From the NCBI GenBank assembly GCA_016190935.1, contig JACPPP010000046.1, positions 20,317 to 84,316 of the forward strand: 64,000 bases of DNA. The letters run 5' to 3'. The stretch's first letter is position 1, and each line of letters begins with the position of its first letter. The notes under the pieces were generated by a model, which searched no databases, was not told the origin of the DNA, and saw nothing but the letters and a program-made list of their open reading frames with translations. This document shows, in pieces, positions 19,910 through 52,554 of this stretch. The stretch is from Armatimonadota bacterium (lineage in GTDB: Bacteria; Armatimonadota; UBA5829; DTLH01). Both the position numbers and the translations under genes were made by a program.

Positions 19910-19918
19910 CGAGCACTG

Positions 19919-34614: not shown

Positions 34615-34682
34615 AGCAGTGGTTCCTTCCCGCAATTCACAGACTTCCGCCCGAATGCGAGGCTGATCATCTGGAGGCAAGG

Positions 34683-35042
34683 CTAAGCGGGGTCGTGGCG
34701 AGGATTGCTGTGGCGCGGCGAAAGCAGAATGGTCAGTTGTATCCCTTCCGTATCCAGGATCGTCTTCAGCGCGGCGTATTCGGAGAAGCTCAGGATGCCG
34801 GTTGTCGACACCACGACCATATCGATGCTTGGATTGCTCGCCAGAGCGCGGCGCAGGTTCCTGAGCTTGGCATCGTTGGCGCACTTGACAGGTTCGGCTG
34901 CATCGCTAACCTCATCGAGGATGTTCCAGCTGCGCTTCTTTGCATAATCCCTCAACGGGGCAAGATGATCCGCGATCGTTTCCGACGGTGATTGGCGCGC
35001 TTCCTTACGCAGAGGAATCTGGGCGTACAAGAGGCAGTTCAT
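34683..35042 (-). CDS. Degenerate resolvase-like N-terminal domain protein (catalytic Ser replaced: YAQIP instead of YARVS)
   Basis: MNCLLYAQIPLRKEARQ...DMVVVSTTGILSFSEYAALKTILDTEGIQLTIL aligns to the resolvase catalytic domain pattern but lacks the nucleophilic serine. Confidence 0.45.
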   Translation of the reverse strand: MNCLLYAQIPLRKEARQSPSETIADHLAPLRDYAKKRSWNILDEVSDAAEPVKCANDAKLRNLRRALASNPSIDMVVVSTTGILSFSEYAALKTILDTEGIQLTILLSPRHSNPRHDPA

Positions 35043-35299
35043 AGGGGCCTCCGTCTGGTTAAGCGTCCTCTCCGGGCTCAAAGAGGACGCGAGGCTGATA
35101 GCAGGGGACGAGCCTAGTGAGTACATGATGTATATCATTGGTCGGAGTCATTGTCAATAGCGGTGCAGTTACCCCCTTGGGCCCCTGGGCAAGCAAGTTG
35201 ATTTCGTTTCCGGCGGTGTGCTACTATCGATAGGCTTGGGAAGCTGGCGAAGGACGATCTGACTTCGTGATAGAGGGGAGTCGTCGGGAGGAACCAACA

Positions 35300-37912
35300 A
35301 TGCTGTACCGCTGCTTGTCAGTCTGCTTCATACTACTATTCACGGCCGTTCCGCCCGCCCCCGCGGGACAGTGGTACTCTGGTATCATTCACGTTCACAC
35401 GACGTTTTCCGACGGATCGGACAACGTTCCCCAGCGTGTGGAACTGGCAAAGAAGCTCGGGTACAAGTTCGTCATCATCACTGACCACTACGAGCAAATC
35501 GGCTCGCCTGAAAAGGTTTCTCTCAGGTATGTTGCCGCCAATCCGCGCGGAGTTGACGTCGGCTTTCCGGACTATGTGCGCAATTGCGGCGAGCAGACCC
35601 GCGACGGCTCATTTGTAGCCATTCCTGGAGCGGAGATTCAGACGATTTGGCACGCTGAACCTGACACGACTGATGCGTCTCACACAGTTGCCCTCGGAAG
35701 CGTCGGCACATCTGGTGATGACAAGCTCATCAAGATGTTTTCGGAGGCGGATCGCCAGGAGGATGTGATCAAGTGGGTCGACAAGCACCATCTGCTTTCC
35801 GTGGCTGCTCATCCGACGCTGATCTCGACGAAATCAGCGACCATCACGCCCTGGGAGTGGCAGCGCAACCGCTACGATCTGCGCAAGCCGGATAGGTACG
35901 TGGGTATCAGGGGGGTGGAATTCTTCAACTCTCAGACCGATCAGCAGAACCACGATGTGCTGGCCTGGTACCTGTCTCTACTCAGAGAGGAGATGAAGAA
36001 ACCCAAGGATAAGCGCAAACCCATATTCGTAACGGCTGGCTGCGACAGCCACGGCTGGAAAGACCCCAACGACCTCGAACGCTGGCTGCGTGGCACATAC
36101 GTGTGGGCTAACGGCCTCAGTACCAGTGGGATTCTTGATGCCCTCGCAAGTGGACGTTCTTACGCATCGACAGGCGGCGTTTACCTCAAAGAAATGAATT
36201 ATCTCCCCGGGGAGCCGGTCCAGAATGTTGATACGCCAACCTTTCGCTTCACGGTAGCCTTTCCAAGCCGTTCCACATCATTTCTCCTCACCTTATCAAA
36301 AAGCTACGGCATCCCTCTGAAGCTGGTGGCGGACTTGATTGGTGAGAGTAACGTGACTACCACCATAATGACGTACCGGGACGGCGAATTAGTGCCGGAG
36401 TCCCGCGCAACGTTCAAGGGTATGCCGACCAGCGTCAAGTACACCTGGACGGACAAGACGGCGGCTCCCGGCGAGCACTGGTACGTGCTGTGGGTGGATG
36501 GAAGGCTGGTCACATCCCCAATCAGGCTAGAGACTACAGGGCGAGCCGAAGACATGCAGAGCTTTCGCCAGGGAACTATGCTCTTTGTGCGAGGTGGAAA
36601 CATCTGGCGGGCTGATCTCACTGCTGGCAAAGCTACCTTAGTCGCGAGAAACGGAAGGCATCCGGCTTGGAACCCTGACAACAGAATTGTGCTGTTCACA
36701 CGGTTGCTGTCGGGCGCATGGGACAAGAGCCTAAGCGTGCGCATAGATTCCTGGGGCCTGTTCAGCCATGATCTCGCGGAGGGCAAGACGGCCAGGATTG
36801 GCAAGCTATCCTCCGAACAGCCGATAACAGCCGCTCGATCAGCGAGAGACGGAGAACTGATCTACCAGTATGCCAATTTCAAAGGCCAGCCGGAACTGTA
36901 TCGATTCCCAGGGATTGCGGGCCGCGATGTCAGGTTCCAGTCGGCTCTCTCTACTGCACAGTACCATTGGGGTGCCTCAATTTCAGGCGACGGGAAATGG
37001 CTGGCTTACCAAGGAGGAGGGGTTGACAGCCGCTATAATACGATAGCCATCTCTGATCTGGCGGAGCTTCAGGTTCGAATTGCCAAGCCGCTCAATCCTA
37101 CGGTCATTTACGGAGCAGGCGGGACGGCGTGGTCTCCGGATAACAGGTGGATCGCAATCGCCGACTCGGATGGCAATCTCTTGAAGATGAGCTTGGAGGG
37201 CTCAGTCACGACACTGGTTCATGGCAATCGGTCGTTCCGAGTGCTACGCCCTACGATCTCGCCCGACGGTCGAGCGGTTGCGTTTGAAGCCCAAGGGCAG
37301 ATATGGGTCTGCGCGGTGTCAGGTGGAGACGCGCAAGTGCTCGTTGCACATGCTACAGAGCCATGCTGGCAACATCAGGCGGTCGCAGTGAGAAGGAAAC
37401 CACAGCGGCAGCACGCCCCGATCACAAAAACCCTTCCGCGCACGGCCCAGTTCCCGGACAGTACGTACCTTGGTACAGTTAGAGTACGAGAGACGTGGAC
37501 GGCTGTGAGGCACCGCTTAGGCGATCATTACAGGGTTCTGCGCGGCACTGGCGACGATATCACGGTAAAGGTTGCATATTCGGACCCGCGGCAAGATGCC
37601 GCTTTGATAATCGGCATGGACGGGACAAAGCTCTCGGACAGCAGCGTGGTGTCTCTCATCAAGCTTGAGAGGACGCAGGGCCGCCGCTTTCCAAAGGCAC
37701 GGGTCGCCTTTGCTGCAGCGGGCAACGCACGCGGTGTGAGGCTGGGCGATTCCCTATCAGATATCCACGCGGCTCACCCGGGCGAACCCCGTTCCGAATG
37801 GCATGGGGACTACCAATATGCGGTCCAATCCCCACATGACTGGCCGTGTTACGTGCATTACCGGGTCAGCGGCGGGAAGGTGACCGCGATGAGTAGCGGC
37901 TATACCCCATGA
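35300..37912 (+). CDS. Secreted PHP-domain phosphoesterase fused to TolB-like beta-propeller (PD40/WD40-like repeats)
   Basis: Signal peptide MLYRCLSVCFILLFTAVPPAPAG. PHP motif IIHVHTTFSDGSD...ITDH. C-terminal repeats of WSPDNRWIAIADSDG / ISPDGRAVAFEAQGQIW type. RBS gggagg before ATG 35300. Confidence 0.65.
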   Translation: MLYRCLSVCFILLFTAVPPAPAGQWYSGIIHVHTTFSDGSDNVPQRVELAKKLGYKFVIITDHYEQIGSPEKVSLRYVAANPRGVDVGFPDYVRNCGEQTRDGSFVAIPGAEIQTIWHAEPDTTDASHTVALGSVGTSGDDKLIKMFSEADRQEDVIKWVDKHHLLSVAAHPTLISTKSATITPWEWQRNRYDLRKPDRYVGIRGVEFFNSQTDQQNHDVLAWYLSLLREEMKKPKDKRKPIFVTAGCDSHGWKDPNDLERWLRGTYVWANGLSTSGILDALASGRSYASTGGVYLKEMNYLPGEPVQNVDTPTFRFTVAFPSRSTSFLLTLSKSYGIPLKLVADLIGESNVTTTIMTYRDGELVPESRATFKGMPTSVKYTWTDKTAAPGEHWYVLWVDGRLVTSPIRLETTGRAEDMQSFRQGTMLFVRGGNIWRADLTAGKATLVARNGRHPAWNPDNRIVLFTRLLSGAWDKSLSVRIDSWGLFSHDLAEGKTARIGKLSSEQPITAARSARDGELIYQYANFKGQPELYRFPGIAGRDVRFQSALSTAQYHWGASISGDGKWLAYQGGGVDSRYNTIAISDLAELQVRIAKPLNPTVIYGAGGTAWSPDNRWIAIADSDGNLLKMSLEGSVTTLVHGNRSFRVLRPTISPDGRAVAFEAQGQIWVCAVSGGDAQVLVAHATEPCWQHQAVAVRRKPQRQHAPITKTLPRTAQFPDSTYLGTVRVRETWTAVRHRLGDHYRVLRGTGDDITVKVAYSDPRQDAALIIGMDGTKLSDSSVVSLIKLERTQGRRFPKARVAFAAAGNARGVRLGDSLSDIHAAHPGEPRSEWHGDYQYAVQSPHDWPCYVHYRVSGGKVTAMSSGYTP

Positions 37913-38643: not shown

Positions 38644-40194
38644 CTACGCACCCCGAATTGCTCTCAGGATGTTGCCAAGCTTCCAGGGGAGCTCGTCGGA
38701 GTTGCAGCAGACGATCCGGTCTTCGCCGAACATGTCCGTGACGTACCCTTCTGTGGTCTCATCCGGGTCCAGAAGGACTCCGATGACTTCCACCTTTCCA
38801 CGCAACTCCCGACAGACTCTCTTCCCGAGTTCGGCGTCGTTACACGCCCCGTCCGTAAGGCAGAGAACAAGCCTGATGCTCTCGGAACGGAGAGTCATAG
38901 GCACGGCGTGCGTTTGTATAGCCCGGCCCATGTCCTCGTAGCCGCAGCGCGCGGGAACAAGCCCGGCGACCAGTGCTTTGCCCCTCTCGCCTACCGCCGA
39001 GTCGGCGATCCTGAGGTTCTGAGGTGTGACCATGATCTCGTGGGGTATCCGAAGCTCCGTGCATACCAGATGCAGTGCCATGACAGCCCCGGCGACGGAC
39101 TCGATTCTGCTCGTGCCTGCGGAGTTGTGATTGAGCGAGGTCGAATGGTCAACGATCACCTTGAGCACCAGCGTGGGAGGAGCTTTGGGGCCGGCCTCCT
39201 CGGTCAGAAACGGTCGGTTCATATCCTTCAGATAGTCTCTCATCGAAAACCTGCCACCCCTTTCGGCCGGTTCCAGCCGGCAGGGCGACTCCTCCCACGA
39301 CAGTTCGTCGATCAGCTCCTGGACGAGCGGCGTCACCTTCTCCTCAAGCTGGATGTACGGCTTCGGTTCGATCGCTTCGTAGCCGCTTCCTTCTCTCCTG
39401 TCGTTGGGCAGAACTTCGCCGTCGAAAGGCTCCGGTTCGACCGGGCTATCGGACGTCGCGGTGCTCGAACCAAGTGGTCTGCCACACACTTTCTCGGCCT
39501 CGTCACCCGCGATCCTCTCGCCCTCGATGTGCCCGAGCCTGTCCATCAGGTCCGTAACCCACGGCGCGATATCTAGTTCGTGGATCCCGAGCAGTTCCAC
39601 AATCTTCTCCGAGTTGCGATAGACGACCTCAGCAGTGTCCGCCTCCCAGGACTCATAGACAAGCGGTTCGACCTTCTTCCAGATGGCCTGGTTTCTGGCG
39701 GAGAGACCGCCTTTCACCGGCTGGCCTGCCCTTCTCGCCCAGCGAAGTTGCAGGAAGTAGGCGACGACCTCGCCCGGACAGTCGGAAGTCTCGTCTATCG
39801 GCTTGGAATCCAGGTAGAACCTGTCGGAGAGCTTCTGGACGAGCCATCTGACTCCCGCAAACTCCTCGCTCATCCGCCGCTCAACCCTTTCGTCCTCCAG
39901 GATGTTTGCCACTCGCTTCACCAGCTCCGGAACCCTCTCAGGGTCGGTGAACCGGCGGTGTCCCGCCTCGTGCACCAGAAGAGCCTTGGTGAGCTGATAC
40001 TGCTCCGCCGCCGGCGCGGGGAAGATGTCGGGGTTGACGGCAATCCGCCGAGCGGTGAAATTGCAGTAGCCGCTCGGACAGCGGCTGCGGTCCGGCTCGA
40101 TAACAACGCGGTATGGCGCGACGCCCTGCATCGCCCGGCCAAAGACGATCAGCCGGTTTCTGATATTGTCCCATTCGTACCAGGGAACAGCCAT
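38644..40194 (-). CDS. DUF2201-type protein: N-terminal putative metallopeptidase-like domain (HEAGH) + C-terminal von Willebrand factor A (VWA) domain; MoxR partner
   Basis: LLVHEAGHRRFTD HExxH-like motif. C-terminal VWA with MIDAS-like VIVDHSTSLNHNS and LVLCLTDGACND. Start at Met 40194 (MAVPWYEWD) preceded by an aaggagg RBS. Confidence 0.65.
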   Translation of the reverse strand: MAVPWYEWDNIRNRLIVFGRAMQGVAPYRVVIEPDRSRCPSGYCNFTARRIAVNPDIFPAPAAEQYQLTKALLVHEAGHRRFTDPERVPELVKRVANILEDERVERRMSEEFAGVRWLVQKLSDRFYLDSKPIDETSDCPGEVVAYFLQLRWARRAGQPVKGGLSARNQAIWKKVEPLVYESWEADTAEVVYRNSEKIVELLGIHELDIAPWVTDLMDRLGHIEGERIAGDEAEKVCGRPLGSSTATSDSPVEPEPFDGEVLPNDRREGSGYEAIEPKPYIQLEEKVTPLVQELIDELSWEESPCRLEPAERGGRFSMRDYLKDMNRPFLTEEAGPKAPPTLVLKVIVDHSTSLNHNSAGTSRIESVAGAVMALHLVCTELRIPHEIMVTPQNLRIADSAVGERGKALVAGLVPARCGYEDMGRAIQTHAVPMTLRSESIRLVLCLTDGACNDAELGKRVCRELRGKVEVIGVLLDPDETTEGYVTDMFGEDRIVCCNSDELPWKLGNILRAIRGA

Positions 40195-40274
40195 TTCGGT
40201 TTTTCCTCCTTGCATAAAAGAATCGGGCCGCCCGAGTTGAGCGGCCCATAGAGTTACGGTTTTGTTTGCCTTAC

Positions 40275-41783
40275 CTACTTGGGCGTGTGAGCCTCGATCA
40301 GGTCGAGAAGCTGGTTGGCGATATCCTCCCGCAGATAGCCGTCCGCATCGGTTCCCGCCACCTGGTGCATCCAGGTGACCTTCGCCGCAGCTTTCAGCCT
40401 GGAGAGAACGGACTTGCCTTTCCCGCCCTTGCACTTCGTCGCCCAGGCAAAGAGCCCTCTCGGCGTGATCTCGCCGGCTAGCTCGCGGTTTCGCCTGAGC
40501 CTTCTGGTCTCGTTCGCCACTTTGACCATGACCGCCGCTGTATCGCGGTCGATCCCTGTCTCCGTGACAAGAAGATCCTCTTCGTCTTTGGGCGCAAGGT
40601 AACGGAACTCCAGCACGCAGGAGAAACGGTTGAGCAAGGCGGTGTCCAGAGCGTTGATCGCGTAACCTTTGCCCAGGTTCATCGCCATCACCGTCTGGAA
40701 CCCGGTCCTCACCTTCACTTCCTCCGACCCGTGCTCGGTCAGCACGACAGCACCGCGTGATAGGACCCCAAGAAGGATGTTCAGCGTCCTCGTGGGCATT
40801 CGGTTCGCCTCGTCGATGAACAGGTATCCTCCGGCCCTCATAGCCTGGACCAGGACCCCGTCCTTCCAGTGGAACCCGCCCCTGCCGTCGGGCACGAAGC
40901 CGCCCAGCAGATCGAACTCCTTCATGGATTCGTGGCCTTCGATGACGGAGACCGGCTTGCCAGATCTCGCCCTGTCGAAGGCCTCGAATGCGCAGAGCGA
41001 TTTGCCGGTGGCTGTAGGTCCGACCAGCAGGCAGTGCATCCCGAGTTCCAAGCTCTCGACGAGTTCGGCAAGCTGTGGGCCGCGGAAACGGCTTTTGACC
41101 GCTGCTGGCGCGGGCAGTTCCTCGGACAATGGCGCTTCTGCGCCGCTGCGATAACCCCTCAGTTTCGCCGCGTCGGTCAGCACCTGGGGATCGAGTGGTT
41201 CAGCCACTGCGACCTCAGGCGGGTAGGTGGCGTCCCGGATCTCGAAGGAGTCGAGCCTCTCCGGATCGTTTATGGCATCGCCCCCCCGCCACTTGGCCCA
41301 GTAGTAGAGCTCGTCTGCAAGATGCATCAGAAGCTCAAGATGCCAGTCGTCGACGGCGGGCGACGCAGCGCGATACACCAGCATTTCCTCGAGCGCGTCA
41401 AGTAAATCGCCGGCCTCGTCTTTGCAGACCAGGGCCTCGCCCAGAAGCAGCAGTCCGAGATGGTAGGTGACGTGTCCTTTTGGCAGGTAAACCTTGTTCC
41501 CTACCAGATAGCAGTGGTGGAAGTCGCTGCCCGACTGGGAAAGCGACCTCACCATCACGACTCCTTCCGGTTCAAGCCTCGAGACGCCGATGACGTCTCC
41601 TTTCAGTGCGACTACGCAGGCTTTGCAGAGCATGGCCGAAAGATGGCCAACGGCCCTGGTGTTCCGCCTGGCAGGGTAAGTGATCTCCTGGCCGCCACGA
41701 AGCTCGGGGAAGATGTCTACCTCTCGCTTTCGGGAGAACAGTATCTGAGTCACGGTTCTTCTGTCTTCGGCTGCAAAGGCCAT
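40275..41783 (-). CDS. MoxR-family AAA+ ATPase with an about 240-aa uncharacterised N-terminal extension
   Basis: Walker A CLLVGPTATGKSLCAFEA, Walker B GGYLFIDEANRMP, sensor region TVMAMNLGKGYAINALDTALLNRF, typical of MoxR/AAA_5. Confidence 0.7.
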   Translation of the reverse strand: MAFAAEDRRTVTQILFSRKREVDIFPELRGGQEITYPARRNTRAVGHLSAMLCKACVVALKGDVIGVSRLEPEGVVMVRSLSQSGSDFHHCYLVGNKVYLPKGHVTYHLGLLLLGEALVCKDEAGDLLDALEEMLVYRAASPAVDDWHLELLMHLADELYYWAKWRGGDAINDPERLDSFEIRDATYPPEVAVAEPLDPQVLTDAAKLRGYRSGAEAPLSEELPAPAAVKSRFRGPQLAELVESLELGMHCLLVGPTATGKSLCAFEAFDRARSGKPVSVIEGHESMKEFDLLGGFVPDGRGGFHWKDGVLVQAMRAGGYLFIDEANRMPTRTLNILLGVLSRGAVVLTEHGSEEVKVRTGFQTVMAMNLGKGYAINALDTALLNRFSCVLEFRYLAPKDEEDLLVTETGIDRDTAAVMVKVANETRRLRRNRELAGEITPRGLFAWATKCKGGKGKSVLSRLKAAAKVTWMHQVAGTDADGYLREDIANQLLDLIEAHTPK

Positions 41784-41789
41784 GGCTTG

Positions 41790-42587
41790 TCACTTCGGCC
41801 TCCTTCCCATCGCCTTGAGTACTGCGTCGGTTCTTGCCTCTTCTCTTCGCTTCAGTTCGGATGGCTTAGGCACGCCGTTCGGCCAGCAGGTGCCGGTGAA
41901 CGGACAGTAGCCGTCGCACTGCCACAGGCCCTCCAAGGTCACCCTCTCCGGGAGCTTTCCACCGTCAAGGGCGGCCTTCAGGTTCTTGAGCCTGGGTGTG
42001 AGCCAGCCCAGAACCTGCCTCACGCCCATCACCTGGACATCGACGCGTTTGACCTCGCTCATGTCGAAGTAAACGATCTCCAGCCTGTCTACCTCGTAGT
42101 GGGGCATCGCCAGATACCGGTACAGGTTGACCTGAAGAGCATGGTTCGCATACGGCTTGTCGTCCTTGGGGATTCTCTTTGTGCTCTTGTAGTCGACGAG
42201 CTTTCCGTGCTGGGGATAGATGACATCAGGATGGCCCGACAGGACGATCCCTGCCACGCTACGCTCGAACCTCCGCTCGCAGATTGCGCCGTCGGACTGA
42301 GCCTGAGCAATCACGGCGTGGAAGAGCTGGCCCCGGAAGGCGTAGTAGAGCTGGGAGGGGTCGAGGTAGATGTCAATTCGTGCTTCCAGCGCCACTTTCC
42401 GCAGGCAGTTGAGCAGGGAGGATACGGACAACCCCGCCTCCTCTCGGATGTTACGCTGCATGGCCGAGAGGATTGGATAGTCGAACTGGCAGGGATTCTC
42501 GTGCGAGGCGGCACATTCCAGACATTCGTCGAAGAGCAGGTCGCCCTTGCCCTTCGGACAGCGAAATCCTCTAATCACGTTTTTCAC
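41790..42587 (-). CDS. Cas4/RecB-like PD-(D/E)xK nuclease with four-cysteine (Fe-S-type) cluster
   Basis: GHPDVIYPQHGKLVDYKSTK (D...DxK). N-terminal Cys (CPKG...CLEC...C) plus C-terminal CDGYCPFTGTC (C-x3-C-x5-C), as in Cas4/AddB-type nucleases. Confidence 0.55.
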   Translation of the reverse strand: MKNVIRGFRCPKGKGDLLFDECLECAASHENPCQFDYPILSAMQRNIREEAGLSVSSLLNCLRKVALEARIDIYLDPSQLYYAFRGQLFHAVIAQAQSDGAICERRFERSVAGIVLSGHPDVIYPQHGKLVDYKSTKRIPKDDKPYANHALQVNLYRYLAMPHYEVDRLEIVYFDMSEVKRVDVQVMGVRQVLGWLTPRLKNLKAALDGGKLPERVTLEGLWQCDGYCPFTGTCWPNGVPKPSELKRREEARTDAVLKAMGRRPK

Positions 42588-42668
42588 CTCTTTCTGAGTG
42601 TGGAGTAAAGGAGGCCGATCCTCCCTGTGGGGGAAGATCGGCCAGAGTGGTGGTGGCCCCGGCGGGAT

Positions 42669-43046
42669 CTATGCAGCGTGTTCCTTGTAGTTCGGACAGC
42701 TCCAGAATGGGCCGTATTTGCCCTGGCGCTCCGTAACCGGGGAGCCGCAGGTGCGGCCGTTCTTCAGCTTCAGGTTGCAGCGCCTCTCGCCGTCCTCGTC
42801 GAGATAGGTCTTCTCGGGCCTTTCCTCCTCCTCGGAGTTGCCATGGTTCTCCTCCGGGACATAGCTTCTTCGCCTGAGCGGCACGCCCCCGGACTTCAAG
42901 ATACCAACCATGGTCTTCTTTGCCCTCGTCTCCAGCGCGGCTTCATCCTCATCACGAAGCGTGATCTGACACTCGAAGCCCTCTTTCGCATGGTAGACCG
43001 TGTTCCAGCTTGCCTGCGCCTCGTCCAAGTTTCTCACCTCCTTCAT
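42669..43046 (-). CDS. Small protein with topoisomerase-I-type C4 zinc-ribbon (CNLKLKNGRTCG...GKYGPFWSCPNY)
   Basis: C-terminal motif closely matches the Zn-ribbon found at the C-terminus of bacterial topoisomerase I/III (GKYGxFWxCxxYP). Confidence 0.4.
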   Translation of the reverse strand: MKEVRNLDEAQASWNTVYHAKEGFECQITLRDEDEAALETRAKKTMVGILKSGGVPLRRRSYVPEENHGNSEEEERPEKTYLDEDGERRCNLKLKNGRTCGSPVTERQGKYGPFWSCPNYKEHAA

Positions 43047-43368
43047 TTCCAGATGTCTGCTCCCGTCTGCTCGTTTCTTATGGCGAATACCTGGCCAAGA
43101 GTCCAGTCGACGCCTTCCCGCATCCGCAAGTCTTCGTCCCAGACTTCGGTCACAGCAGTCTCTGCTGCTTGCTCCGCCTCGCCTTCCGCGTCGGCTACGA
43201 CGCTCACAGAGACGGTAACGTCAAAGCACACTGTCCAGCGAGTCATTTCCTCGCCTCCATCCAGGCGTTTTCGTTGTAAGGTTCTGAGTTCCAGATTAAC
43301 CCATTGCAGCCTCAAGACAAGGGGGGACGATTTGCCGCTGCCGGCAACAGCGCCCTGCTTTTCCAGAA

Positions 43369-44673
43369 GTGGCCGGGTGCTATAGTGGGTCCATGAGAGC
43401 AGACTGCCATGAAGACAATTCGATCACCCCCTTCGGGGTCACCGACTACCGGGACACGAGGCTCAGGTTCGGCATCAAGCGGAAGGATCGCCGGGGCCAT
43501 ATGTATGTCATCGGCCAGACGGGGACGGGCAAGTCCACGCTGATCGAGAATATGGCCATCTCGGACATCCTGCGGGGGGAGGGACTGGCCCTCATCGACC
43601 CGCACGGCGACCTGGCGGAGAGCCTTCTCGACTCGGTGCCCGAGAAAAGGTTGGAGGATGTCATCTACTTCAACGCGGCCGACTCCGAGTATCCCGTGGG
43701 CATCAACCCTCTGGACAAGGTGAATGCCGATCTCCGGTCCCTTGTCGCCTCCGGCCTCATTTCAGTGTTCAAGAAGATCTGGCCCGATTTCTGGGGTCCA
43801 AGGTTGGAGCACATCCTGAGGTACTCGTTGCTGACACTCCTTGAGCGCCCCGATAGCACGCTTCAAGACGTGCCGCCGCTCCTGACGGACAAGGGATTTC
43901 GGACGAAAGTGCTGAAGAGCGTCACCGACCGGCAGGTGCACAGCTTCTGGCTGCTGGAGTTCGACAAGTACACCGCGTGGCTCAAGTCCGAGGCGGTCTC
44001 GCCGGTCCTGAACAAGATGGGGCAGTTCCTGGCAAGCGTGCCGATCAGGAACATCGTCGGCCAGAGCCGCAGCAGCTTCAAGTTGCGGCAAGTGATGGAT
44101 GAGGGGAAGATCCTGATAGTCAGGCTTGCCAAGGGAAGGATCGGGGAAGACAACTGCGCTCTGCTCGGAGCGTTGATAGTCACCAGAATCATGCTCGCGG
44201 CGCTCAGCCGCTCAGACATACCAGAAGGAGAGCGCAGGCCCTTCTATCTCTACGTCGACGAGGTCCACAACTTCTTCACCGACTCGTTCATAGACATGCT
44301 GTCCGAATCCAGGAAGTATGGGCTGTGCCTGGTGCTGGCGCATCAGTATATCGATCAGCTCGACGAGAAGATGCGCTCGGCCATCTTCGGGAACGTAGGA
44401 ACGATCGTCTCCTTCAGGGTTGGAATGACCGACGCCAGAGTACTGGCCCAGCAGTTCGAGCCTGTCTTCGACGGGGCCGACCTCATCGGCCTGCCGAACC
44501 ATCACATCTACCTGAAGCTGATGATAGACGGGGTCACGTCCCGTCCGTTCAGCGCGAAGACACTACCGCCGGCCGCCGGAGCACACTCCTGGAGGAAGGA
44601 AATCACTGAGTTCTCAAGGGCGAAGTACGGGAGGCCGAGGCAGGAAGTCGAGCGTCAACTCATACGCCGGTAG
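43369..44673 (+). CDS. TraD/VirD4-like or HerA/FtsK-superfamily (DUF87-like) ATPase
   Basis: Walker A HMYVIGQTGTGKSTLIENM, Walker B FYLYVDEVHNFF. About 430 aa, divergent from the upstream operon. Confidence 0.5.
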   Translation: MAGCYSGSMRADCHEDNSITPFGVTDYRDTRLRFGIKRKDRRGHMYVIGQTGTGKSTLIENMAISDILRGEGLALIDPHGDLAESLLDSVPEKRLEDVIYFNAADSEYPVGINPLDKVNADLRSLVASGLISVFKKIWPDFWGPRLEHILRYSLLTLLERPDSTLQDVPPLLTDKGFRTKVLKSVTDRQVHSFWLLEFDKYTAWLKSEAVSPVLNKMGQFLASVPIRNIVGQSRSSFKLRQVMDEGKILIVRLAKGRIGEDNCALLGALIVTRIMLAALSRSDIPEGERRPFYLYVDEVHNFFTDSFIDMLSESRKYGLCLVLAHQYIDQLDEKMRSAIFGNVGTIVSFRVGMTDARVLAQQFEPVFDGADLIGLPNHHIYLKLMIDGVTSRPFSAKTLPPAAGAHSWRKEITEFSRAKYGRPRQEVERQLIRR

Positions 44674-44810: not shown

Positions 44811-46370
44811 CTAGCCAGCGCTCATGGCCAGCGGCATGCACCTCTCAGGCTTCAGCACAGTCATCCTGCTTCCGAACGTCTGCTCGAACCACTCCGGCGT
44901 CTGTGTATGCACGGGGATGATGTGCTTCGGCTGCATCGTGTCGATCAGCTCAGCCAGCGCCACGCCTGTGATATGGCCGGAGGCGTGGTAGCGGACCTCG
45001 GACTCCTTGTCTTCGGGATCTCCGACAAGAGTCATCCCGAATCTCGACACCCAGTTCCGCAGCCGACGGAAATCATACTCCTGCTCTTCCGAGTACAGTT
45101 CGCTGGATGAGTAGAGGTAGATGCCCCCAGGAGGAGGATTGATGTCCACGAGGTGGCTCAGGTCGAAGAAGCTGAAGCACAGAATGTACCGGCCGGGCTC
45201 ACAGCCTATGTCCTCGGGCTCCAGCGATTTTCCGCCACACATGCTATGAACATGCTGCTCCCATCCGTCCATCCGGGCCTTCGCCTTCTCGTAGAGCATT
45301 ATCCTGTCATCAGCGGCGGGTTCCGGAACGGCAGCATCGACCAGGTGCATAGCCTCCAGAAGCAACACATCCTTCGCCGTCAGGACCAGCCGCCGATCAG
45401 TCTCCTCCGCTATCCGCAGGAAAGAGAGCAGCCGCTCCACGTTTCTCGGTCCGAAGTCAGCTATAACGAACTGACCAGCCGCAGCCCTCACCGCTACCAC
45501 CGCGTTGGCATATACGTCGTCCTCGGTGGCGGACGTATCCTTGTGGATATGGGTACCCTCGGTGATGAGGACAAGCGGATGCAGCTTCGCCGCAGCTTCC
45601 GCAAACTGCCGCGTCAGCGCTCCGTTACGTCCGTGGACGCGTAGGTCGCCGGTATAGACGACGTATCCTTCGTCGGTCTTGATCGTGAAGCCTGTTGCGC
45701 CGAAGATCGAATGATCGACAGGGTAGCCGCAGACTTCAAGACTGCCTATGCAGGTGCAGGTACCCGGCATCTGTGCCTGAAGCCCTCTCGATGAGGTGAA
45801 GGCGGTCTCCCAGAAGTCGGATGCGCGGTCGGATAGCTCAGCCGAGTTGAGCAACAGGAATGGCCTTTGCACTGCATCACAGCCTCTCGCCGCGCCGACC
45901 GCCCCCCCGTTGCAGGCCTTCGGGATTGCGTAGCAGACCTCCGTTTCCATCGTACTCCTGCCCGAATCCTGAATAGCTTTGGTAATGAACGTGGTCATGG
46001 CGCCGCATGCTATGGGGATCTCCGGCTTGAGGAATGATATGTAGCCTGAGTGGTCGAGGTGGCCGTGCGATAGCAGCACTCCCTGCACGTCCACATCACG
46101 AATCGAGCATCGAGACTGCACCCGATCCCAGACGCCGTCATCTGGCACGAGATCGTCACGGTAGATACCCTTCAGCGGGGGCAAGAGGTCCATCTCCAAT
46201 GGATCGAGCAACCCCTTCACGCCGCGTGGCTGAAGGAACTCCTGATAGAACTTCTCCTTCGAGGAATAGCATATCCCGAAGTCTAGGAAGACGGCGGTGC
46301 CGCCAGACTCGACCAGGATCTTGTTCCCGCCGATGCAATCGGCTCCGTCATAGCATGTGATGGTGACCAT
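44811..46370 (-). CDS. Metallo-beta-lactamase-fold hydrolase (RNase J/beta-CASP-like nuclease candidate)
   Basis: HxHxDH motif in VLLSHGHLDHSGY and further His/Asp ligands downstream. 519 aa. Confidence 0.65.
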   Translation of the reverse strand: MVTITCYDGADCIGGNKILVESGGTAVFLDFGICYSSKEKFYQEFLQPRGVKGLLDPLEMDLLPPLKGIYRDDLVPDDGVWDRVQSRCSIRDVDVQGVLLSHGHLDHSGYISFLKPEIPIACGAMTTFITKAIQDSGRSTMETEVCYAIPKACNGGAVGAARGCDAVQRPFLLLNSAELSDRASDFWETAFTSSRGLQAQMPGTCTCIGSLEVCGYPVDHSIFGATGFTIKTDEGYVVYTGDLRVHGRNGALTRQFAEAAAKLHPLVLITEGTHIHKDTSATEDDVYANAVVAVRAAAGQFVIADFGPRNVERLLSFLRIAEETDRRLVLTAKDVLLLEAMHLVDAAVPEPAADDRIMLYEKAKARMDGWEQHVHSMCGGKSLEPEDIGCEPGRYILCFSFFDLSHLVDINPPPGGIYLYSSSELYSEEQEYDFRRLRNWVSRFGMTLVGDPEDKESEVRYHASGHITGVALAELIDTMQPKHIIPVHTQTPEWFEQTFGSRMTVLKPERCMPLAMSAG

Positions 46371-46428
46371 CCGCCTTCACCTCCTGTAGTTGCCATCGTG
46401 GCTTGATCAGCCAGGATGGTGGCAGGAC

Positions 46429-49017
46429 TTAGCTCAGGTTGTACTTCGATTTGCGCAGAATATACGGCTCCCTACCGCCCTCCAGAACCTGAAGGGCCGG
46501 CTCCTGCGCGCATTCAATGCCACCCAGGCATCTGACTGTTGCGCTGGTGGAGTCGCTCTCCACGTGAATCATCATGTCCGTATCTGAGGACACGGCGACC
46601 GTGTTGTTGTGCGTGGTCAAGATGAACTGCCGCTGTGTCTTGTTCTGGCGCAGTTTCTGAGCCACGTCCTCCCAGACAGTCTTAATGTCCAGGGCGTCTT
46701 CCGGTTGGTCTATGATGATCGGCCTCTCTCCCCGCGACAGGGCTATGATGAGCAGCGCAGTGCATTTCTGACCAACGGACAATTCGTCCAGCGTCGCATA
46801 GGACCCGCTATCCTTCCTGAACTTGATCGTCGGCTCGTCCTGTGGGTACCAACCGTGCTGGAGGCGGAGCAGCGGCTGAAGGCTCTCGGCGCTCATGAGC
46901 CTGCTGACCATAGTGTCAGCCGTTGTCTCCGGGATGCCGGCCTCTGCCGCAAGGCCGGCGGCGTCCTTGGTAAGGACAAGATCCACGAACCGTCGCGGTG
47001 AGAGCTTCTCGCCGACATCTTCAATATAGTCGCCCTTGACTCTGGAGCCGGTAACAAGCTCCTTGAGCTGCTCCTGAAACTGCCCGGAATCGGTTGAGTG
47101 CTTTACCTCCAGCCGAAGTTTCCGGCCAGACTGCTTAGCCAGGTCTGCATAAACTGTGGCCCGCTCGTTGTACAGGTCATCGTAGAGCCTGTCGAGAGCA
47201 TCGAGAGATTCCGTTCTCTCAGTTTGAAGCTTGCCACACTCGGCAGCACGTGCCTTGCGCTGGCTGATGCGCTTTTCCAGCTTCGACAGCTCCTCCTCAG
47301 CCTTCGCCCGCTCCTCGTTCAACTTCTTCTCGTCGGCAACAAGCGTCTCCGCGTAGGCCTTCTCGGCTGCGTTATACTGCGGCATCCACGATGCTCGCCT
47401 TGCCTCGATCAGCGACTTATGCGACTCCATGATCGCGATGGCGGCATCCAGCTTCTCCCGCACGTCGCTTCGCGCCTTCGCCGCGCTGTCCGTGGCCCAC
47501 TTGAGGTCGGGGTCCTCTTCTGCCGTCTCCTCTGCTGCAGAACCTTTGATGTCGTCCCTGGCGGCAGTGATCAGTTCCTTTACGCCATCGGCGTCCTGCT
47601 CAATGCCGCCGAAGGCGTTCTTTTTCTGCTTCGCAGTCTCGAACGCGGCCCGCAGCTTCGCTCGTTCCTCGCCACCCGCGAGAGCGGTGTCGATGTCTCT
47701 GATCTTGCCCTTGTACGTCTCGGCTTCCTTAATGATCTCCGTGACCTCCGTAGCGGCCGCGAGCGCGTCGCCGAGATCTTTGTCATTCTGATCAAGAGCG
47801 GCCTGGACTTGGGCGATCTTGCGCTGATGTGATGGAACGTCCACGAAGGAGTCCGTCAGCAACAGCTGCGCCCGCGTGTCCTTCGCAATCTCGATGATCT
47901 CCGTCTGACTGTATGCCAGGATCGGGAAAAGCTCCGGGATGTGGCCCTGGTACTGGATGCTTGCCGCCGTGTCAGTGCACGTGACGCTTCCGTCCGTTGC
48001 ACGGCGCAGAGCATACGTCACCCCCGCCGCCGTCAGCAACTGCAGTTCGACATGTCCGCTCGGTCCGAGGCACTTATCGACCTTCTTCCTGTGGTCTGCA
48101 AGGATGGTCGGTTCGTTAGAGGGCTGCCCTAAAGCGAATCTCATGAACTCTATGATGAGTGATTTGCCTGCACCTTTGCCACCGAAGATGCTGTTCAGGC
48201 TATCGTTTAGGTAGAGCTGCTGCCCATCAAGGAAGCCTCCCACCACGTTCATGCTGAGTATCCGGGGGAAGGCGTCCTGTGGTGTCCAGTCCATGGGCAT
48301 TATGCGTACCGACGGGTCGATGAAGCACTGTCTGAGACTTTCGAGCCTCAGGTCGCTGTCCAAGCGCATCCAGCACCTCCGCAGGCCGATGCCATCAAGC
48401 GAGTGCTTCTTCGGATCCGATGCGTCCGGGTTATCCGATATCTGGTAACAGGCCGGTATCCTGGAGAAACCGTGGCCTTTGTCGAAGTCCGCCGGAAGAG
48501 AGGGCCCAGTGGTCTCAACGGCATCGTACCAGGGGGCGTTAAGCGTTGCTATGCGTGTCTGCCCATTCAGCTCCCGGAAGACGCCTTTCGGGCCGTCGCA
48601 GTGCGCAAACACAACAAGCCCGCCCCAGTCGCGGATGGTCTTCGACACCTCCTCCAGAGTCTTCGAACACAGCGTCTCCGGCTTGCCCCGCTCATCAGGC
48701 TTGATGCCAAGCGCCGCGAGCAAACCGTTGACGTATTCGGTATCCCGGTCTATGTCAAACAGGGCCACGACATGTACGCCCGGCGCTACCGTGATCTCCA
48801 CTCCCGGGAACACGGCAAGCGCAGAACCAGCCACAGCCGACCTCACCTTGTCTATCCACTCGCCTGTGTTATGGTCGGTGATGGCTATAGCGGCAAGTCC
48901 TTTGCCAACGGCGGCTTCGACAACCTGTTCCGGCGTAACAGTCTTGTCCGCAAAGCACTTGGACGCCGGTGTATGTATGTGGAGATCAACACTTCGAAAA
49001 GCCAAACCCTTTCCCAT
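46429..49017 (-). CDS. PHP-domain phosphoesterase fused to an SMC/RecF/SbcC-like ABC ATPase with central coiled coil (single-chain SbcCD-like nuclease-ATPase)
   Basis: N-terminal PHP motifs VDLHIHTPAS...ITDHN. Walker A IFGGKGAGKSLIIEF. About 300-aa coiled-coil region. C-terminal signature/Walker B/D-loop LSVGQKCTALL...IIIDQPEDALD and H-loop ILTTHN. Confidence 0.65.
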   Translation of the reverse strand: MGKGLAFRSVDLHIHTPASKCFADKTVTPEQVVEAAVGKGLAAIAITDHNTGEWIDKVRSAVAGSALAVFPGVEITVAPGVHVVALFDIDRDTEYVNGLLAALGIKPDERGKPETLCSKTLEEVSKTIRDWGGLVVFAHCDGPKGVFRELNGQTRIATLNAPWYDAVETTGPSLPADFDKGHGFSRIPACYQISDNPDASDPKKHSLDGIGLRRCWMRLDSDLRLESLRQCFIDPSVRIMPMDWTPQDAFPRILSMNVVGGFLDGQQLYLNDSLNSIFGGKGAGKSLIIEFMRFALGQPSNEPTILADHRKKVDKCLGPSGHVELQLLTAAGVTYALRRATDGSVTCTDTAASIQYQGHIPELFPILAYSQTEIIEIAKDTRAQLLLTDSFVDVPSHQRKIAQVQAALDQNDKDLGDALAAATEVTEIIKEAETYKGKIRDIDTALAGGEERAKLRAAFETAKQKKNAFGGIEQDADGVKELITAARDDIKGSAAEETAEEDPDLKWATDSAAKARSDVREKLDAAIAIMESHKSLIEARRASWMPQYNAAEKAYAETLVADEKKLNEERAKAEEELSKLEKRISQRKARAAECGKLQTERTESLDALDRLYDDLYNERATVYADLAKQSGRKLRLEVKHSTDSGQFQEQLKELVTGSRVKGDYIEDVGEKLSPRRFVDLVLTKDAAGLAAEAGIPETTADTMVSRLMSAESLQPLLRLQHGWYPQDEPTIKFRKDSGSYATLDELSVGQKCTALLIIALSRGERPIIIDQPEDALDIKTVWEDVAQKLRQNKTQRQFILTTHNNTVAVSSDTDMMIHVESDSTSATVRCLGGIECAQEPALQVLEGGREPYILRKSKYNLS

Positions 49018-49204
49018 CGTTACCCTCCGCTGTAAGCCAGATATGCTCGCCTGAAGCGGCTACACAGCCGAACCTGGGGTACCCTTGCCGTACGCCGACA
49101 ACTCTTGAGTAGCGCATATTGGCGAGGACACCCTTCACCGTCTTGGCGATGCCCTGTACGGTCTTCACGATGGCACCTCGTCGCCAGGAGCGTAATGGAA
49201 AGCT

Positions 49205-50293
49205 CTACCAGTAGAGCCGCTTGTAGGCCTCGAAATCAAACTTGTGCGTGCGCTTGACGTGAGCGTCAATCCCGTACCTCATGCATCGCCCGCAGAACTG
49301 ACATTGCCTGCCAGGGCTGGGCGGCGGCCAATCCTCCCGCGGCACTACCTGTACGGCCAGGGCCGGATCTATGGGCAGATCGTCCGGAGGAGGTCGCGGA
49401 TCGCCCCGTCGCGGCGGCGGATCATACGCCTCCTGCGTCGGGACGTAGATTGCGCCTTCCAGTAGCCACGTCTCCTTATAGCGGTCCCTCAGGAATCCTG
49501 TGTGCGTCTTCAGGTTGTCTCCGGTCGCAAGCCAGATGGAGTTGATGCATGCGAGAACGGCGTCGCGGGCATCCTTCCAGTTGCGACCTTCAGGTGTGTA
49601 GTTCTCAACATTCACGCGTACACCTATTCTAAGCGTGGCGACCGCTATATCTTGTGTGGACGGTGCCTCTAGCAGACCGAGAGCTGACCTGACGGCTGCC
49701 GGATATGTTTCGACGACGGTTGGGTGCTCTTCAGTGGGCTCGTCCCACGGGCAGATTGCGCACGAGCCGTGGAGGCGGTGCAAGAGGGCAGTGCCCCTGT
49801 GAACCATCGGGATCATGTCCGGGTTCACAGTATGTATGCAGCTTTGCCCGCCGAGATCGCGGTCGGTTTGCCGAAGAGGTTCGTCTGCCGCTTCCGGTGG
49901 GCGGCGCAAGGCTTCTGCACACCGTAGGAGCTGTATCACGGATTCTGAGACCTGGGTAGTCTCGAAATCTGTTAGCTTCCAGGCAGCCGCGAGCAACCGT
50001 AGGAACACCTGAGGAACTCTATCCAATATCCGCCACACGTTGCGAGACTGACGCACATCCCTGAACCACATATTGCACAACTCTGTCGGGAGCGAGAATG
50101 GGAAATCCAGCGCCCAGATTGACGGTCCCGAGCGACCGACCTCGTCCTGTACTTGATCACGCGACAGGTTCTGCCGTACACGGATTGTCCATTCACCAGC
50201 GTCAAATCTCCCCGATGCTAACGCTATGTTCGCTTGCGGTCTGTCGTCTCTTCCGGCGCCGCTGAAGTCAACCCCGTAACATCTAGTGATCAC
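49205..50293 (-). CDS. DUF429-like (predicted RNase H-fold) protein
   Basis: N-terminal MITRCYGVDFSGAG resembles the DUF429 N-terminal strand-turn motif. Weak assignment. Confidence 0.3.
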   Translation of the reverse strand: MITRCYGVDFSGAGRDDRPQANIALASGRFDAGEWTIRVRQNLSRDQVQDEVGRSGPSIWALDFPFSLPTELCNMWFRDVRQSRNVWRILDRVPQVFLRLLAAAWKLTDFETTQVSESVIQLLRCAEALRRPPEAADEPLRQTDRDLGGQSCIHTVNPDMIPMVHRGTALLHRLHGSCAICPWDEPTEEHPTVVETYPAAVRSALGLLEAPSTQDIAVATLRIGVRVNVENYTPEGRNWKDARDAVLACINSIWLATGDNLKTHTGFLRDRYKETWLLEGAIYVPTQEAYDPPPRRGDPRPPPDDLPIDPALAVQVVPREDWPPPSPGRQCQFCGRCMRYGIDAHVKRTHKFDFEAYKRLYW

Positions 50294-50428
50294 GCCGCCA
50301 CCTCGGTGTCGGCGACGATCTGCCTCAGCAGGCCATCGGCCTCCGCCTCAAGTGCGAGGATACCGTCGGCGATGCCCCAGATGACACTCATGATGCCGTT
50401 ATGTTGAGATTCGTCCATTGACTCCCTC

Positions 50429-50653
50429 TTACATGCTCCTGTCGCGCCTCTTCGCCACGGATTCAGTGGACGCAGTGCCGCCCTTGGCACCGCCTGAACG
50501 CACCCAGGCATCGACTTCCTCTTTTCGAAACTTCCAGTGACGGCCTACCTTGTGCCCGGGCATGTCCCTGTGGACGACCCAACGGTACACGCTCTCCTTC
50601 ACCACGCCGAGATAGGTGGCAATCTCATCTACCGACAGCCATCGGTCTTCCAT
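50429..50653 (-). CDS. Excisionase/AlpA-family HTH DNA-binding protein (paralog of 32246-32461)
   Basis: WLSVDEIATYLGVVKESVYRWVVHRDMPGHKVGRHWKFRKEEVDAW. Confidence 0.6.
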   Translation of the reverse strand: MEDRWLSVDEIATYLGVVKESVYRWVVHRDMPGHKVGRHWKFRKEEVDAWVRSGGAKGGTASTESVAKRRDRSM

Positions 50654-51072
50654 AGTTGGCTGGCTCCACAGAAACTACAATGGCCGTCTGCCGCAACGAC
50701 GCATCGTGACGGACAGTGGACGTTGTATCGCGCCTGCTCGCCCACGGCATTATAGCATCAAAAGCTCTGCAATGGCCAGCCATCCAGCTATACTGGGTAT
50801 GACTACAGATGACTGTTGTTGACCAAGCTCTCATTGTCGGCGGTGATCCAGCAAGAGAGACGATAGCAGAACAGTAGTGATGGATAGGCGCAGGCAGTTC
50901 GGTTTGCCGAGCACACCGTCGAGCGAAGCAAGCGGCAACGCCTGGTGAAGGAGACACGCCTCCGGGCTTGACGGGGGTTGACGATCACCCTGCGGACTCT
51001 TTAGAATTTGGAGTGTCGGTTGACGCATCGTCTGCCGGTATGCAGCGCTGTCTGAATTGCGAGTGCGGGACC

Positions 51073-52554
51073 ATGGGTGAAGCAAAGCAAGTCGGAATCT
51101 GGATCCGAGTATCGACAGAAGACCAGGCTAGAGGCGAGAGCCCGGAGCATCACGAGAAGCGGGCACAGGATTACGCCGGGTTCAAGGAGTGGCAGGTCAG
51201 GGAGGTCTATCATCTGGAGGGTGTAAGCGGCAAGGCTGTCATGAGCCACCCCGAGACCCAGCGGATGTTGTCGGACATCCAGTCGGGACGCATCACCGGA
51301 CTTATCTTCTCCAAACTTGCTCGTCTCGCCCGCAATACGAGGGAGCTGCTTGAGTTCTCCGAGCTATTCAACGCTCACGGCGCAGACCTTATTTCTCTCC
51401 ATGAGTCCATCGACACCTCCACCCCTGCCGGCCGTCTGTTCTACACTATGATTGCGGCAATGGCTCAGTGGGAGCGCGAGGAGATCGCAGAGCGCGTTTT
51501 GGCTTCAGTACCGATACGCGCCAAGCTGGGTAAGCCGCTTGGAGGCAAAGCACCGTTCGGCTACCGCTGGGAAAACAAAGTCCTGGTTCCCGACCCCGCT
51601 GAAGCTCCGATAAGGAACCTGGTATATGAGCTTTTTCTCGAGCATCGCCGGAAGAAGAGGGTGGCCAGGCTCCTGAATGAAGCTGGCTACAGGACCAGGA
51701 GCGGAGTGGAATTCTCCCACTCGACGGTCAGCAAGATGCTGCGCGATCCCACGGCCAAAGGCCTTCACAGGGCGAACTACACCAGGCTCGTCAAGGGCCA
51801 GTGTGTCCTGAAACCAGAAAGCGAGTGGGTCTACACCACCGTCGAGGCTATCGTGCCGGAACAACTCTGGACCGAGTGCAACCAGATCCTTGATGACCAG
51901 GAGAAGCGCAACAAACGGCCAGCTCGCAAGACGGTGCAGCTCTTCAGCGGCGTCGTCCTGTGCAGTTGCGGCGGCAAGATGTATGTGCCTTCCAAGTCCC
52001 ACAAGTACACGTGTCGGAAATGCCTTGCCAAGATAGATGTCGACGACCTCGAAGAGGTATTCCACGAGCAGCTCAAAGCCTTCTTCCTCTCACCAGATGA
52101 GCTCGACAACTATCTGGCCAAAGCCGACCGGGTTATCCAGGAGAAGCAAGACTTGTTGCAGACCCGCTTCGATGAGGAGCGCAAGCTGAAGCAGGAAATG
52201 GACCGAGTCTACAGATTCTATATGGACGCGGAGATAACCCCAGCCGGCTTTGGGGCAAGATACAAGCCTTTGGAAGAAAGGCTGGCCCAAATCGAAGACC
52301 AGATCCCGGAGGTGCAGGCCGAGATAGACTTTCTCAAGATCCAATACCTCTCAAGCGACGAAATCCTGCACGAAGCCAGAGACCTCTATGCCAGATGGCC
52401 AGACCTTACTTACGAACACAAGCGTCAGATCATCGAAAGCATCACCCAGAGCATCATCATCGACAAGGACGAAGTGATCATCAACCTCGCCTACCTACCG
52501 TCGTCCTCGGAACTGATAGCAAAAAGTGCGACTAACCCTCGGGATGGGAGATGA
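51073..52554 (+). CDS. Large serine recombinase
   Basis: Start at ATG 51073 (MGEAKQVGIWIRVSTEDQ) with catalytic RVST. Recombinase domain, zinc ribbon (CSCGGKMY...CRKC) and C-terminal coiled coil. The upstream N-terminal extension in the ORF track is judged non-coding. Confidence 0.8.
   Translation: MGEAKQVGIWIRVSTEDQARGESPEHHEKRAQDYAGFKEWQVREVYHLEGVSGKAVMSHPETQRMLSDIQSGRITGLIFSKLARLARNTRELLEFSELFNAHGADLISLHESIDTSTPAGRLFYTMIAAMAQWEREEIAERVLASVPIRAKLGKPLGGKAPFGYRWENKVLVPDPAEAPIRNLVYELFLEHRRKKRVARLLNEAGYRTRSGVEFSHSTVSKMLRDPTAKGLHRANYTRLVKGQCVLKPESEWVYTTVEAIVPEQLWTECNQILDDQEKRNKRPARKTVQLFSGVVLCSCGGKMYVPSKSHKYTCRKCLAKIDVDDLEEVFHEQLKAFFLSPDELDNYLAKADRVIQEKQDLLQTRFDEERKLKQEMDRVYRFYMDAEITPAGFGARYKPLEERLAQIEDQIPEVQAEIDFLKIQYLSSDEILHEARDLYARWPDLTYEHKRQIIESITQSIIIDKDEVIINLAYLPSSSELIAKSATNPRDGR

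Follow-up and report, generated by a model that had tools for sequence, protein, structure and literature searches.

Does the fusion of a PHP phosphoesterase with an SMC-type ATPase, encoded in an Armatimonadota genome between two other predicted nuclease genes, belong to an unnamed multi-gene defence system, or to a known family whose members act alone? The gene in question lies at 46429-49017 on the minus strand of a 64,000-nucleotide stretch (NCBI GenBank assembly GCA_016190935.1, contig JACPPP010000046.1, positions 20,317 to 84,316 of the forward strand), here called the window, and encodes a protein of 862 amino acids (aa). A sequence-only reading of the window had joined this PHP-SMC protein, a metallo-beta-lactamase (MBL) fold enzyme and a DUF429-like protein into a system that it could not name. 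We find that the fusion has a name already: its profile matches place the protein in the TrlF family, whose sister is Ppl, an anti-phage protein that works as a single gene. The gene probably encodes a Ppl-like (TrlF-family) nuclease-ATPase that acts alone against phages, and the recombinase-rich island would carry it among many other defence cassettes, each independent of the rest. The open reading frames (ORFs) of the locus are the following.

44811-46370, minus strand: MBL neighbour gene, 519 aa (from the ORF table).
46429-49017, minus strand: PHP-ABC ATPase gene assigned to the TrlF family (Ppl-like), 862 aa, the functional unit (NF045780, 383.1 bits).
49205-50293, minus strand: DUF429-like neighbour gene, 362 aa (from the ORF table).
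50290-50418, minus strand: 42-codon ORF read from the sequence, ending in a TGA that shares bases with the GTG at which the DUF429-like gene starts (GTGA).
50429-50653, minus strand: HTH_17 (excisionase/AlpA-type) DNA-binding protein, 74 aa (PF12728, E = 1.2e-15, 57.9 bits).
50968-52554, plus strand: large serine recombinase with Resolvase and Recombinase domains, divergent from the HTH_17 gene.

The three main ORFs lie where the sequence-only reading had placed them, and the motifs that it quoted (HIHTPAS, ITDHN, GGKGAGKS, LSVGQK, IIDQPEDALD, TTHN and HGHLDHSG) all occur in the translations. For an Armatimonadetes metagenome-assembled genome, NCBI lists proteins with 100% identity to the 862-aa and the 519-aa protein, annotated as 'PHP domain-containing protein' and 'exonuclease', respectively.

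The NCBIfam model NF045780 ('TrlF family AAA-like ATPase') matches the 862-aa protein end to end, aligning residues 3-860 with all 944 profile positions (1-944), at 383.1 bits (E = 4.7e-114, curated cutoff 350). The second-best NCBIfam model is NF042955, 'anti-phage protein Ppl', with 235.6 bits (E = 1e-69), below its equivalog cutoff of 1000. Ppl is also the best PADLOC match (E = 2.2e-46, 156 bits; the match falls into two stretches, and the main one spans residues 9-622 of the 862), as scored without PADLOC's own coverage and score rules, and weaker PADLOC matches to LmuB (E = 7e-10), mad3, AriA and GajA follow far behind. Two relatives reach 413 bits (P0002) and 409 bits (P0080) against the TrlF model, the latter being named 'TrlF family' by NCBI; for a 935-aa protein of the main clade the scores are 655 bits with the TrlF model and 532 bits with the Ppl model. 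By these scores TrlF and Ppl are close sister families of the same architecture, and the 862-aa protein belongs to a short, divergent TrlF clade. The form is thus not an unnamed one, as it matches a TrlF family model above cutoff and the sister Ppl has been published (PMC11482910, PMC12904381).

Pfam finds an N-terminal PHP domain in the protein (35.5 bits, cutoff 26.4) together with AAA_23, AAA_21 and SMC_N, and the chain divides as follows.

48283-49017, minus strand: PHP phosphoesterase domain, about aa 1-245 (Pfam PHP and a 34-sequence alignment).
47848-48264, minus strand: N-terminal lobe of the ABC/SMC-type ATPase head, about aa 252-390 (alignment, Rad50 N-lobe profile matches and the AlphaFold2 (AF2) model).
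47131-47838, minus strand: antiparallel coiled coil, about aa 394-629, with its apex near aa 490-502 (DSSP of the AF2 model).
46432-47128, minus strand: helical insert and C-terminal ATPase lobe, about aa 630-862 (AriA and AAA_21 matches over 729-823).

Residue conservation was read from an alignment of 34 homologues with 37-46% identity to the 862-aa query. All PHP metal ligands (H13, H15, D48, H49, E74, H82, H139, D195 and H205) are invariant, so the PHP domain is not degenerate; a degenerate PHP domain, which the sequence-only reading had named as a finding that would speak against it, is ruled out. In the ATPase, Walker A (G279-S286), the Q-loop Q371, the signature residues S747, G749 and Q750, the Walker B D770, the catalytic Glu E773 and the D-loop D777 are likewise invariant, and the H-loop H803 is conserved in at least 90% of the homologues. 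The AF2 model built from the homologue alignment (mean predicted local distance difference test score, pLDDT, 86) shows the PHP domain as a barrel and the ABC head in two parts, with helices 394-489 and 503-629 paired in an antiparallel coiled coil, which is short, with about 100-125 residues per arm. The protein has no Cys at aa 480-510, and no Cys between 390 and 630 is conserved among the homologues; with no cysteine at its apex, the coiled coil therefore lacks a CxxC zinc hook of the Rad50 type. In Foldseek searches against the PDB, the head matches those of MukB, Smc, Rad50, JetC, RecN, RecF and LmuB, and the N-terminus matches the PHP domain of RNase AM, the closest solved PHP being RNase AM 7ug9. 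In sequence-profile searches the best PDB match of the head is Rad50 9q9h (E = 4e-7), and the N-terminus matches PHP enzymes of the RNase AM/TrpH type; no solved structure of Ppl or TrlF was found in the PDB by sequence, profile or fold. The 862-aa protein is a single polypeptide in which an intact PHP phosphoesterase is joined to an SMC/Rad50-type ABC head split by a coiled coil, and Pfam, the AF2 model and Foldseek agree on this fusion, which had first been recognized from motifs.

The earlier description of the protein as a one-chain analogue of SbcCD holds as a structural analogy. As in SbcCD and Mre11-Rad50, an antiparallel coiled coil divides the ABC head, and a predicted metal-dependent nuclease is coupled to that head. 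Unlike in those complexes, the nuclease-type domain is a PHP domain fused in cis rather than a calcineurin-like phosphoesterase (Pfam and NCBIfam give no match to an Mre11/SbcD-type Metallophos domain), the coiled coil is short and hookless, and the family is found in defence islands, not in repair loci. Lamassu LmuB and Wadjet JetC are, similarly, SMC-like defence ATPases, and the 862-aa protein is linked to them by the weak LmuB profile match and by the JetC and LmuB fold matches; it differs in having its effector (PHP) fused, and its scores to them are far weaker than to Ppl and TrlF. No LmuA/LmuC or JetA/B/D partners were found beside the ATPase gene in a PADLOC scan of its two neighbours, which are the MBL and DUF429-like genes.

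What the protein may do is best judged from Ppl. Ppl, a single gene coding for an ATPase and a PHP domain, protects against T7 and Bas63, and gp130 of Bas63 counteracts it (PMC11482910). In a second report, Ppl is a 3'-5' exonuclease on single-stranded DNA, inhibited by nucleoside triphosphates (NTPs) that occupy both its PHP exonuclease domain and its NTPase domain, and activated by nucleotide depletion together with 3'-OH ends made by phage homing endonucleases (PMC12904381). A review table groups ppl with the systems of that review's reference 20 (PMC13223576). The 862-aa protein resembles Ppl, which acts as a single gene (PMC11482910), in carrying PHP and NTPase in one polypeptide and in keeping the catalytic residues. 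Both have defence islands as their setting; Ppl has no conserved partner gene, and the closest relatives of the 862-aa protein likewise have variable neighbours. A difference from Ppl is that, in the window clade, 9 inserted residues separate the final Asp of the PHP domain from its final His (SD...KKH vs SDAH). The gene ppl belongs to the set of Gao et al. 2020, which would be reference 20 of the review table.

By homology to Ppl of E. coli, the ATPase head and coiled coil would dimerise and monitor DNA ends, and bound NTPs would hold the enzyme off. Infection, by depleting nucleotides and creating free 3'-OH DNA ends, would turn the enzyme on, and the PHP domain, as a metal-dependent 3'-5' exonuclease, would then degrade DNA and so halt phage replication. 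A defence role of the 862-aa protein is likely.

Several points weigh against this reading. The TrlF cutoff is cleared narrowly (383 vs 350 bits), the strict Ppl equivalog cutoff is failed (236 vs 1000 bits), and identity is low, at about 24-26% to the Ppl-proximal clade and only about 25% to the bulk of the TrlF family. With the Ppl cutoff failed and identity this low, its trigger and substrate may therefore differ from those of Ppl. Moreover, the nearest enzymes to its PHP domain are of the RNase AM/TrpH type and have RNA or nucleotides as substrates, so that the target may yet be RNA or nucleotides. The three genes are also co-oriented with short gaps, which would permit co-transcription or cooperation. 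Furthermore, no publication on the TrlF family was found in the literature, where 'TrlF' led only to spectroscopy (TRLFS) and to the trl genes of tropolone biosynthesis. It appears from the literature that no member of the TrlF family, unlike Ppl proper, has been tested experimentally, and a literature search for ABC ATPases with PHP domains or SbcC in conflict systems found nothing.

The settings of the relatives bear on the defence role. TrlF relatives are patchily distributed over Armatimonadota, Chloroflexota, Acidobacteriota, Methanoperedens, Proteobacteria and phages, and most of them lie in chromosomal defence islands with no recombinase alongside. The six closest relatives examined (39-46% identity, on long contigs) are all solo genes with differing neighbours, and five of the six lie among defence or mobile-element genes. 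Their settings include a BREX/Pgl cluster (PglY/PglZ) with a DUF433/DUF5615 toxin-antitoxin pair and an AlbA_2 gene, GmrSD adjoining an AddAB-like pair, a BglII restriction-modification (R-M) system with Fic and integrase fragments, and NgoFVII and BsobI-type R-M genes; NERD-UvrD is also among the neighbours. The sixth relative has metabolic and housekeeping genes on its flanks (L068). Phage relatives were found as well, one in a Vibrio phage-like element and one in the P2-like Yersinia phage vB_YenM_42.18. In the latter the TrlF-family gene (465 bits; OM046624.1, 8621-11239; L161:4001-6619) occupies the region from gpA to gpQ, the position of a known P2 anti-phage hotspot, and its label in the phage record, 'chromosome partition protein Smc', is probably a misannotation. 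A scan of viral contigs returned only four relatives, distant and partial. The defence interpretation offered by the sequence-only reading stands, because the relatives lie mostly among BREX, R-M, GmrSD and toxin-antitoxin genes and not among repair or replication genes, and because the window itself is a defence island.

Of the two neighbouring proteins, the 519-aa one was correctly read as MBL-fold: by profile it is a predicted beta-CASP MBL-fold nuclease, RNase J-like and EF2904-like. It carries an HxHxDH motif, and its matches to RNase J TIGR00649 (E = 4.5e-17, 61.7 bits vs a cutoff of 400) and to NF047419 (46.4 bits vs a cutoff of 820) are partial and confined to the beta-CASP region, with a weak match to the RMMBL tail; its best solved relative, EF2904 (2az4), is itself uncharacterised. 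The MBL gene was also considered as a marker of a conserved core-genome position and rejected, as its synteny with the contigs of the 64% and 48% homologues comprises the gene alone.

The DUF429-like label of the 362-aa protein is borne out by homology to DUF429 members and by the RNase-H-like fold, but not by a direct Pfam match: no Pfam family, DUF429 (PF04250) included, was found at E<=0.1. The protein aligns with DUF429 proteins over residues 1-285, with D9, D63, R141 and D144 invariant and D244 conserved in at least 90%, and is on this alignment a DUF429 homologue with a predicted RuvC/RNase-H-like fold and conserved acidic residues. A Pro-rich linker then leads to a C-terminal CCHH motif (aa 333-362, C-x2-C-x11-H-x4-H), which AlphaFold models with low confidence. 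This motif (window 49205-49300, CQFCG-x8-DAH-x4-H-x-F) is 44% identical to residues 277-341 of P0299 (348 aa), the N-terminal part of which has no relation to the 362-aa protein; this suggests that the two share a small mobile module resembling a zinc finger. When 5.8 billion proteins were searched by word index, the one match to the 362-aa protein was a fragment of itself, and an exhaustive HMMER search found one 48%-identical fragment and weak DUF429 relatives; in these searches the protein comes out as nearly an orphan. Its sole orthologue (47% identity) comes from a contig of 1.5 kb, which is too small to reveal the genes around it. Upstream, the HTH_17 protein corresponds to the AlpA-like regulator that had been noticed near the genes, and the 42-codon ORF has no match in a Pfam scan. 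The HTH_17 gene, the 42-codon ORF and the DUF429-like gene look more tightly coupled to each other than to the ATPase gene.

Could the three genes nevertheless form a lineage-specific multi-nuclease defence operon, in which a TrlF/Ppl-like nuclease-ATPase has recruited the RuvC-fold/CCHH protein and the beta-CASP enzyme under the HTH_17 regulator? They share a strand, with spacers of 187 nucleotides between the 362-aa ORF and the ATPase gene and 58 nucleotides between the ATPase stop codon and the MBL gene; their G+C is alike (0.589-0.592); all three products are predicted nucleases with intact catalytic motifs; and the contig of the only DUF429-like orthologue hides its context. The loci of relatives, however, show neither partner. 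In 66 genome loci of TrlF relatives, each taken with up to 8 kb of flank, tblastn found no match to the MBL or the 362-aa protein; clustering of the neighbours in these relatives' loci and the loci of the six closest relatives revealed neither an MBL nor a DUF429-like partner, and such a neighbour occurs in none of about 74 loci in all. Conversely, 80 metagenome loci of DUF429-like relatives contain neither TrlF nor MBL and show metabolic synteny instead, and MBL homologues of 48-64% identity lie between housekeeping or metabolic genes, such as folC and pheA, with no TrlF. A 78%-identical MBL copy has unrelated upstream genes, and its nucleotide similarity to the window starts and stops at the gene borders. 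Moreover, each gene has its own ribosome-binding site (for the ATPase gene a GGAGGG Shine-Dalgarno sequence 7 nucleotides before the ATG, for the MBL gene an AGGAGG), and the partner that does recur beside TrlF genes, an AlbA_2/HATPase_c_4 protein, is absent from the window. Promoter and terminator scans of 44.3-51.2 kb gave a signal no higher than in shuffled sequence, and the 187-nucleotide spacer 5' of the ATPase gene folds no better than its shuffles (z = -0.21). Across these loci conservation gives no support to a three-gene system, and we consider such an operon very unlikely; the MBL/beta-CASP and DUF429-like RuvC-fold genes, which had been proposed as partners, are most likely independent and just happen to lie on the same strand.

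A role for the nuclease-ATPase in the upkeep of its own element, by excluding rival plasmids and elements or by processing the element's own DNA ends rather than by general phage defence, is unlikely, though a large serine recombinase and an excisionase-type gene (HTH_17) lie near the locus, relatives occur in the P2-like phage and the Vibrio phage-like element, and the fold neighbours of the protein include SMC-like defence proteins, Wadjet JetC among them. Most relatives are in chromosomal defence islands with no adjoining recombinase, Ppl as the only characterised relative acts on phages (PMC11482910, PMC12904381), and PADLOC finds no JetA/B/D-like partners in the two neighbours. That the protein is a housekeeping repair enzyme, a single-chain analogue of SbcCD or RecN for hairpins or double-strand breaks, is very unlikely. 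Its head is Rad50/RecN-like by profile and fold, and PHP domains proofread in PolX and Pol III (bioRxiv 10.1101/2025.09.30.679545); yet the family is scattered over phyla and phages, its neighbours are variable and mostly defence genes, the zinc hook is absent, and the gene lies in an island whose G+C, at about 0.59, is above that of the adjacent metabolic genes, dropping to about 0.52 past about 52.5 kb over URO-D, MFS and GH38 genes. The reading as a solo Ppl-like anti-phage gene is therefore preferred to these alternatives.

The window around this gene is a large defence island with three recombinases, which suggests several nested or adjacent mobile elements. Its further features are these.

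6594-8681, minus strand: KAP-family P-loop NTPase.
8708-9955, plus strand: tyrosine integrase adjoining the KAP NTPase, the third recombinase of the window.
10001-11506, minus strand: 501-aa protein with a C-terminal SAVED sensor domain, one of a CBASS-like pair.
11519-12424, minus strand: SMODS nucleotidyltransferase, the other of the CBASS-like pair.
16426-18459, minus strand: 677-aa protein with an N-terminal HATPase_c_3 domain (MORC/GHKL-type) and a weak match to Shedu SduA DUF4263 at residues 405-552.
18710-21046, minus strand: HerA/mad8-like ATPase of 399 aa and an adjacent 375-aa gene with no family match.
21043-25576, minus strand: 1344-aa protein with a faint BrxC/BrxD-like match, and a 169-aa P-loop protein directly upstream with a 10-nucleotide overlap.
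26985-27779, minus strand: PAPS-reductase-like SspD of an Ssp-type phosphorothioation module.
27783-31247, minus strand: SspC (PADLOC E = 6e-299).
31213-32154, minus strand: DUF4007 protein, SspB-like.
33019-34884: large serine recombinase.
35267-37912, plus strand: 881-aa second PHP-domain protein, with an N-terminal PHP fused to PD40/SGL beta-propeller repeats and no PADLOC match.
38644-40434, minus strand: 596-aa protein with no Pfam match.
40275-41783, minus strand: AAA_5/MoxR- or McrB-type ATPase.
41790-42587, minus strand: PD-(D/E)XK nuclease.
42627-44673, plus strand: second HerA/mad8-like ATPase of 434 aa (43.4-44.7 kb) and an adjacent 252-aa gene with no family match.

The pair of 1344-aa and 169-aa proteins lies between the first HerA-like pair and the Ssp genes, and neither SspA nor SspE was identified among the window genes scanned. 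The PD-(D/E)XK, AAA_5 and 596-aa genes are a co-oriented trio (38644-42587) that may be an unclassified McrBC-like defence module; PADLOC gives no match for the AAA_5 or the 596-aa gene. A longer relative of the 434-aa HerA-like protein, 32% identical to it, lies 3.6 kb from the TrlF gene in one relative's locus (L035). The serine recombinase at 50968-52554 is near the right end of the island. An element bounded by recombinases, as had been proposed, is plausible given the serine recombinases at 33019-34884 and 50968-52554, but it is unproven: between 32 and 53.5 kb only short repeats at chance level were found in place of att-like repeats, so that element borders were not located, and the window has no tRNA gene.

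The main value of these results is a correction, in that the PHP-SMC fusion opens no new class of system. They also document a short, divergent TrlF clade that spans bacteria and archaea, keeps all catalytic residues and occurs as a solo gene in defence islands. From the bulk of the TrlF family the 862-aa protein, with its N-terminal PHP followed by a split ABC ATPase and its full-length match above the curated cutoff, differs in being shorter (vs about 935 aa) and divergent, and its window lacks the AlbA_2/HATPase_c_4 neighbour and the embedding in type I R-M genes that are seen in about half of the family loci.

The recurrent partner of TrlF in the main clade is a 434-aa SLFN AlbA_2 and HATPase_c_4 protein. 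Among the 56 loci with an identifiable TrlF ORF, its gene is directly downstream of TrlF in 25 and its cluster is present in 27; over all of the about 74 TrlF loci, an AlbA_2 homologue is found in 39. TrlF and AlbA_2/HATPase_c_4 may be a two-gene module, of which we have met no description. The pair is often within type I R-M operons (HsdR-like, N6_Mtase) and may merit attention of its own in these loci; examples among the loci L004-L067 are given below.

L033:3008-4312.
L029:3257-5830.
L058:4410-6032.

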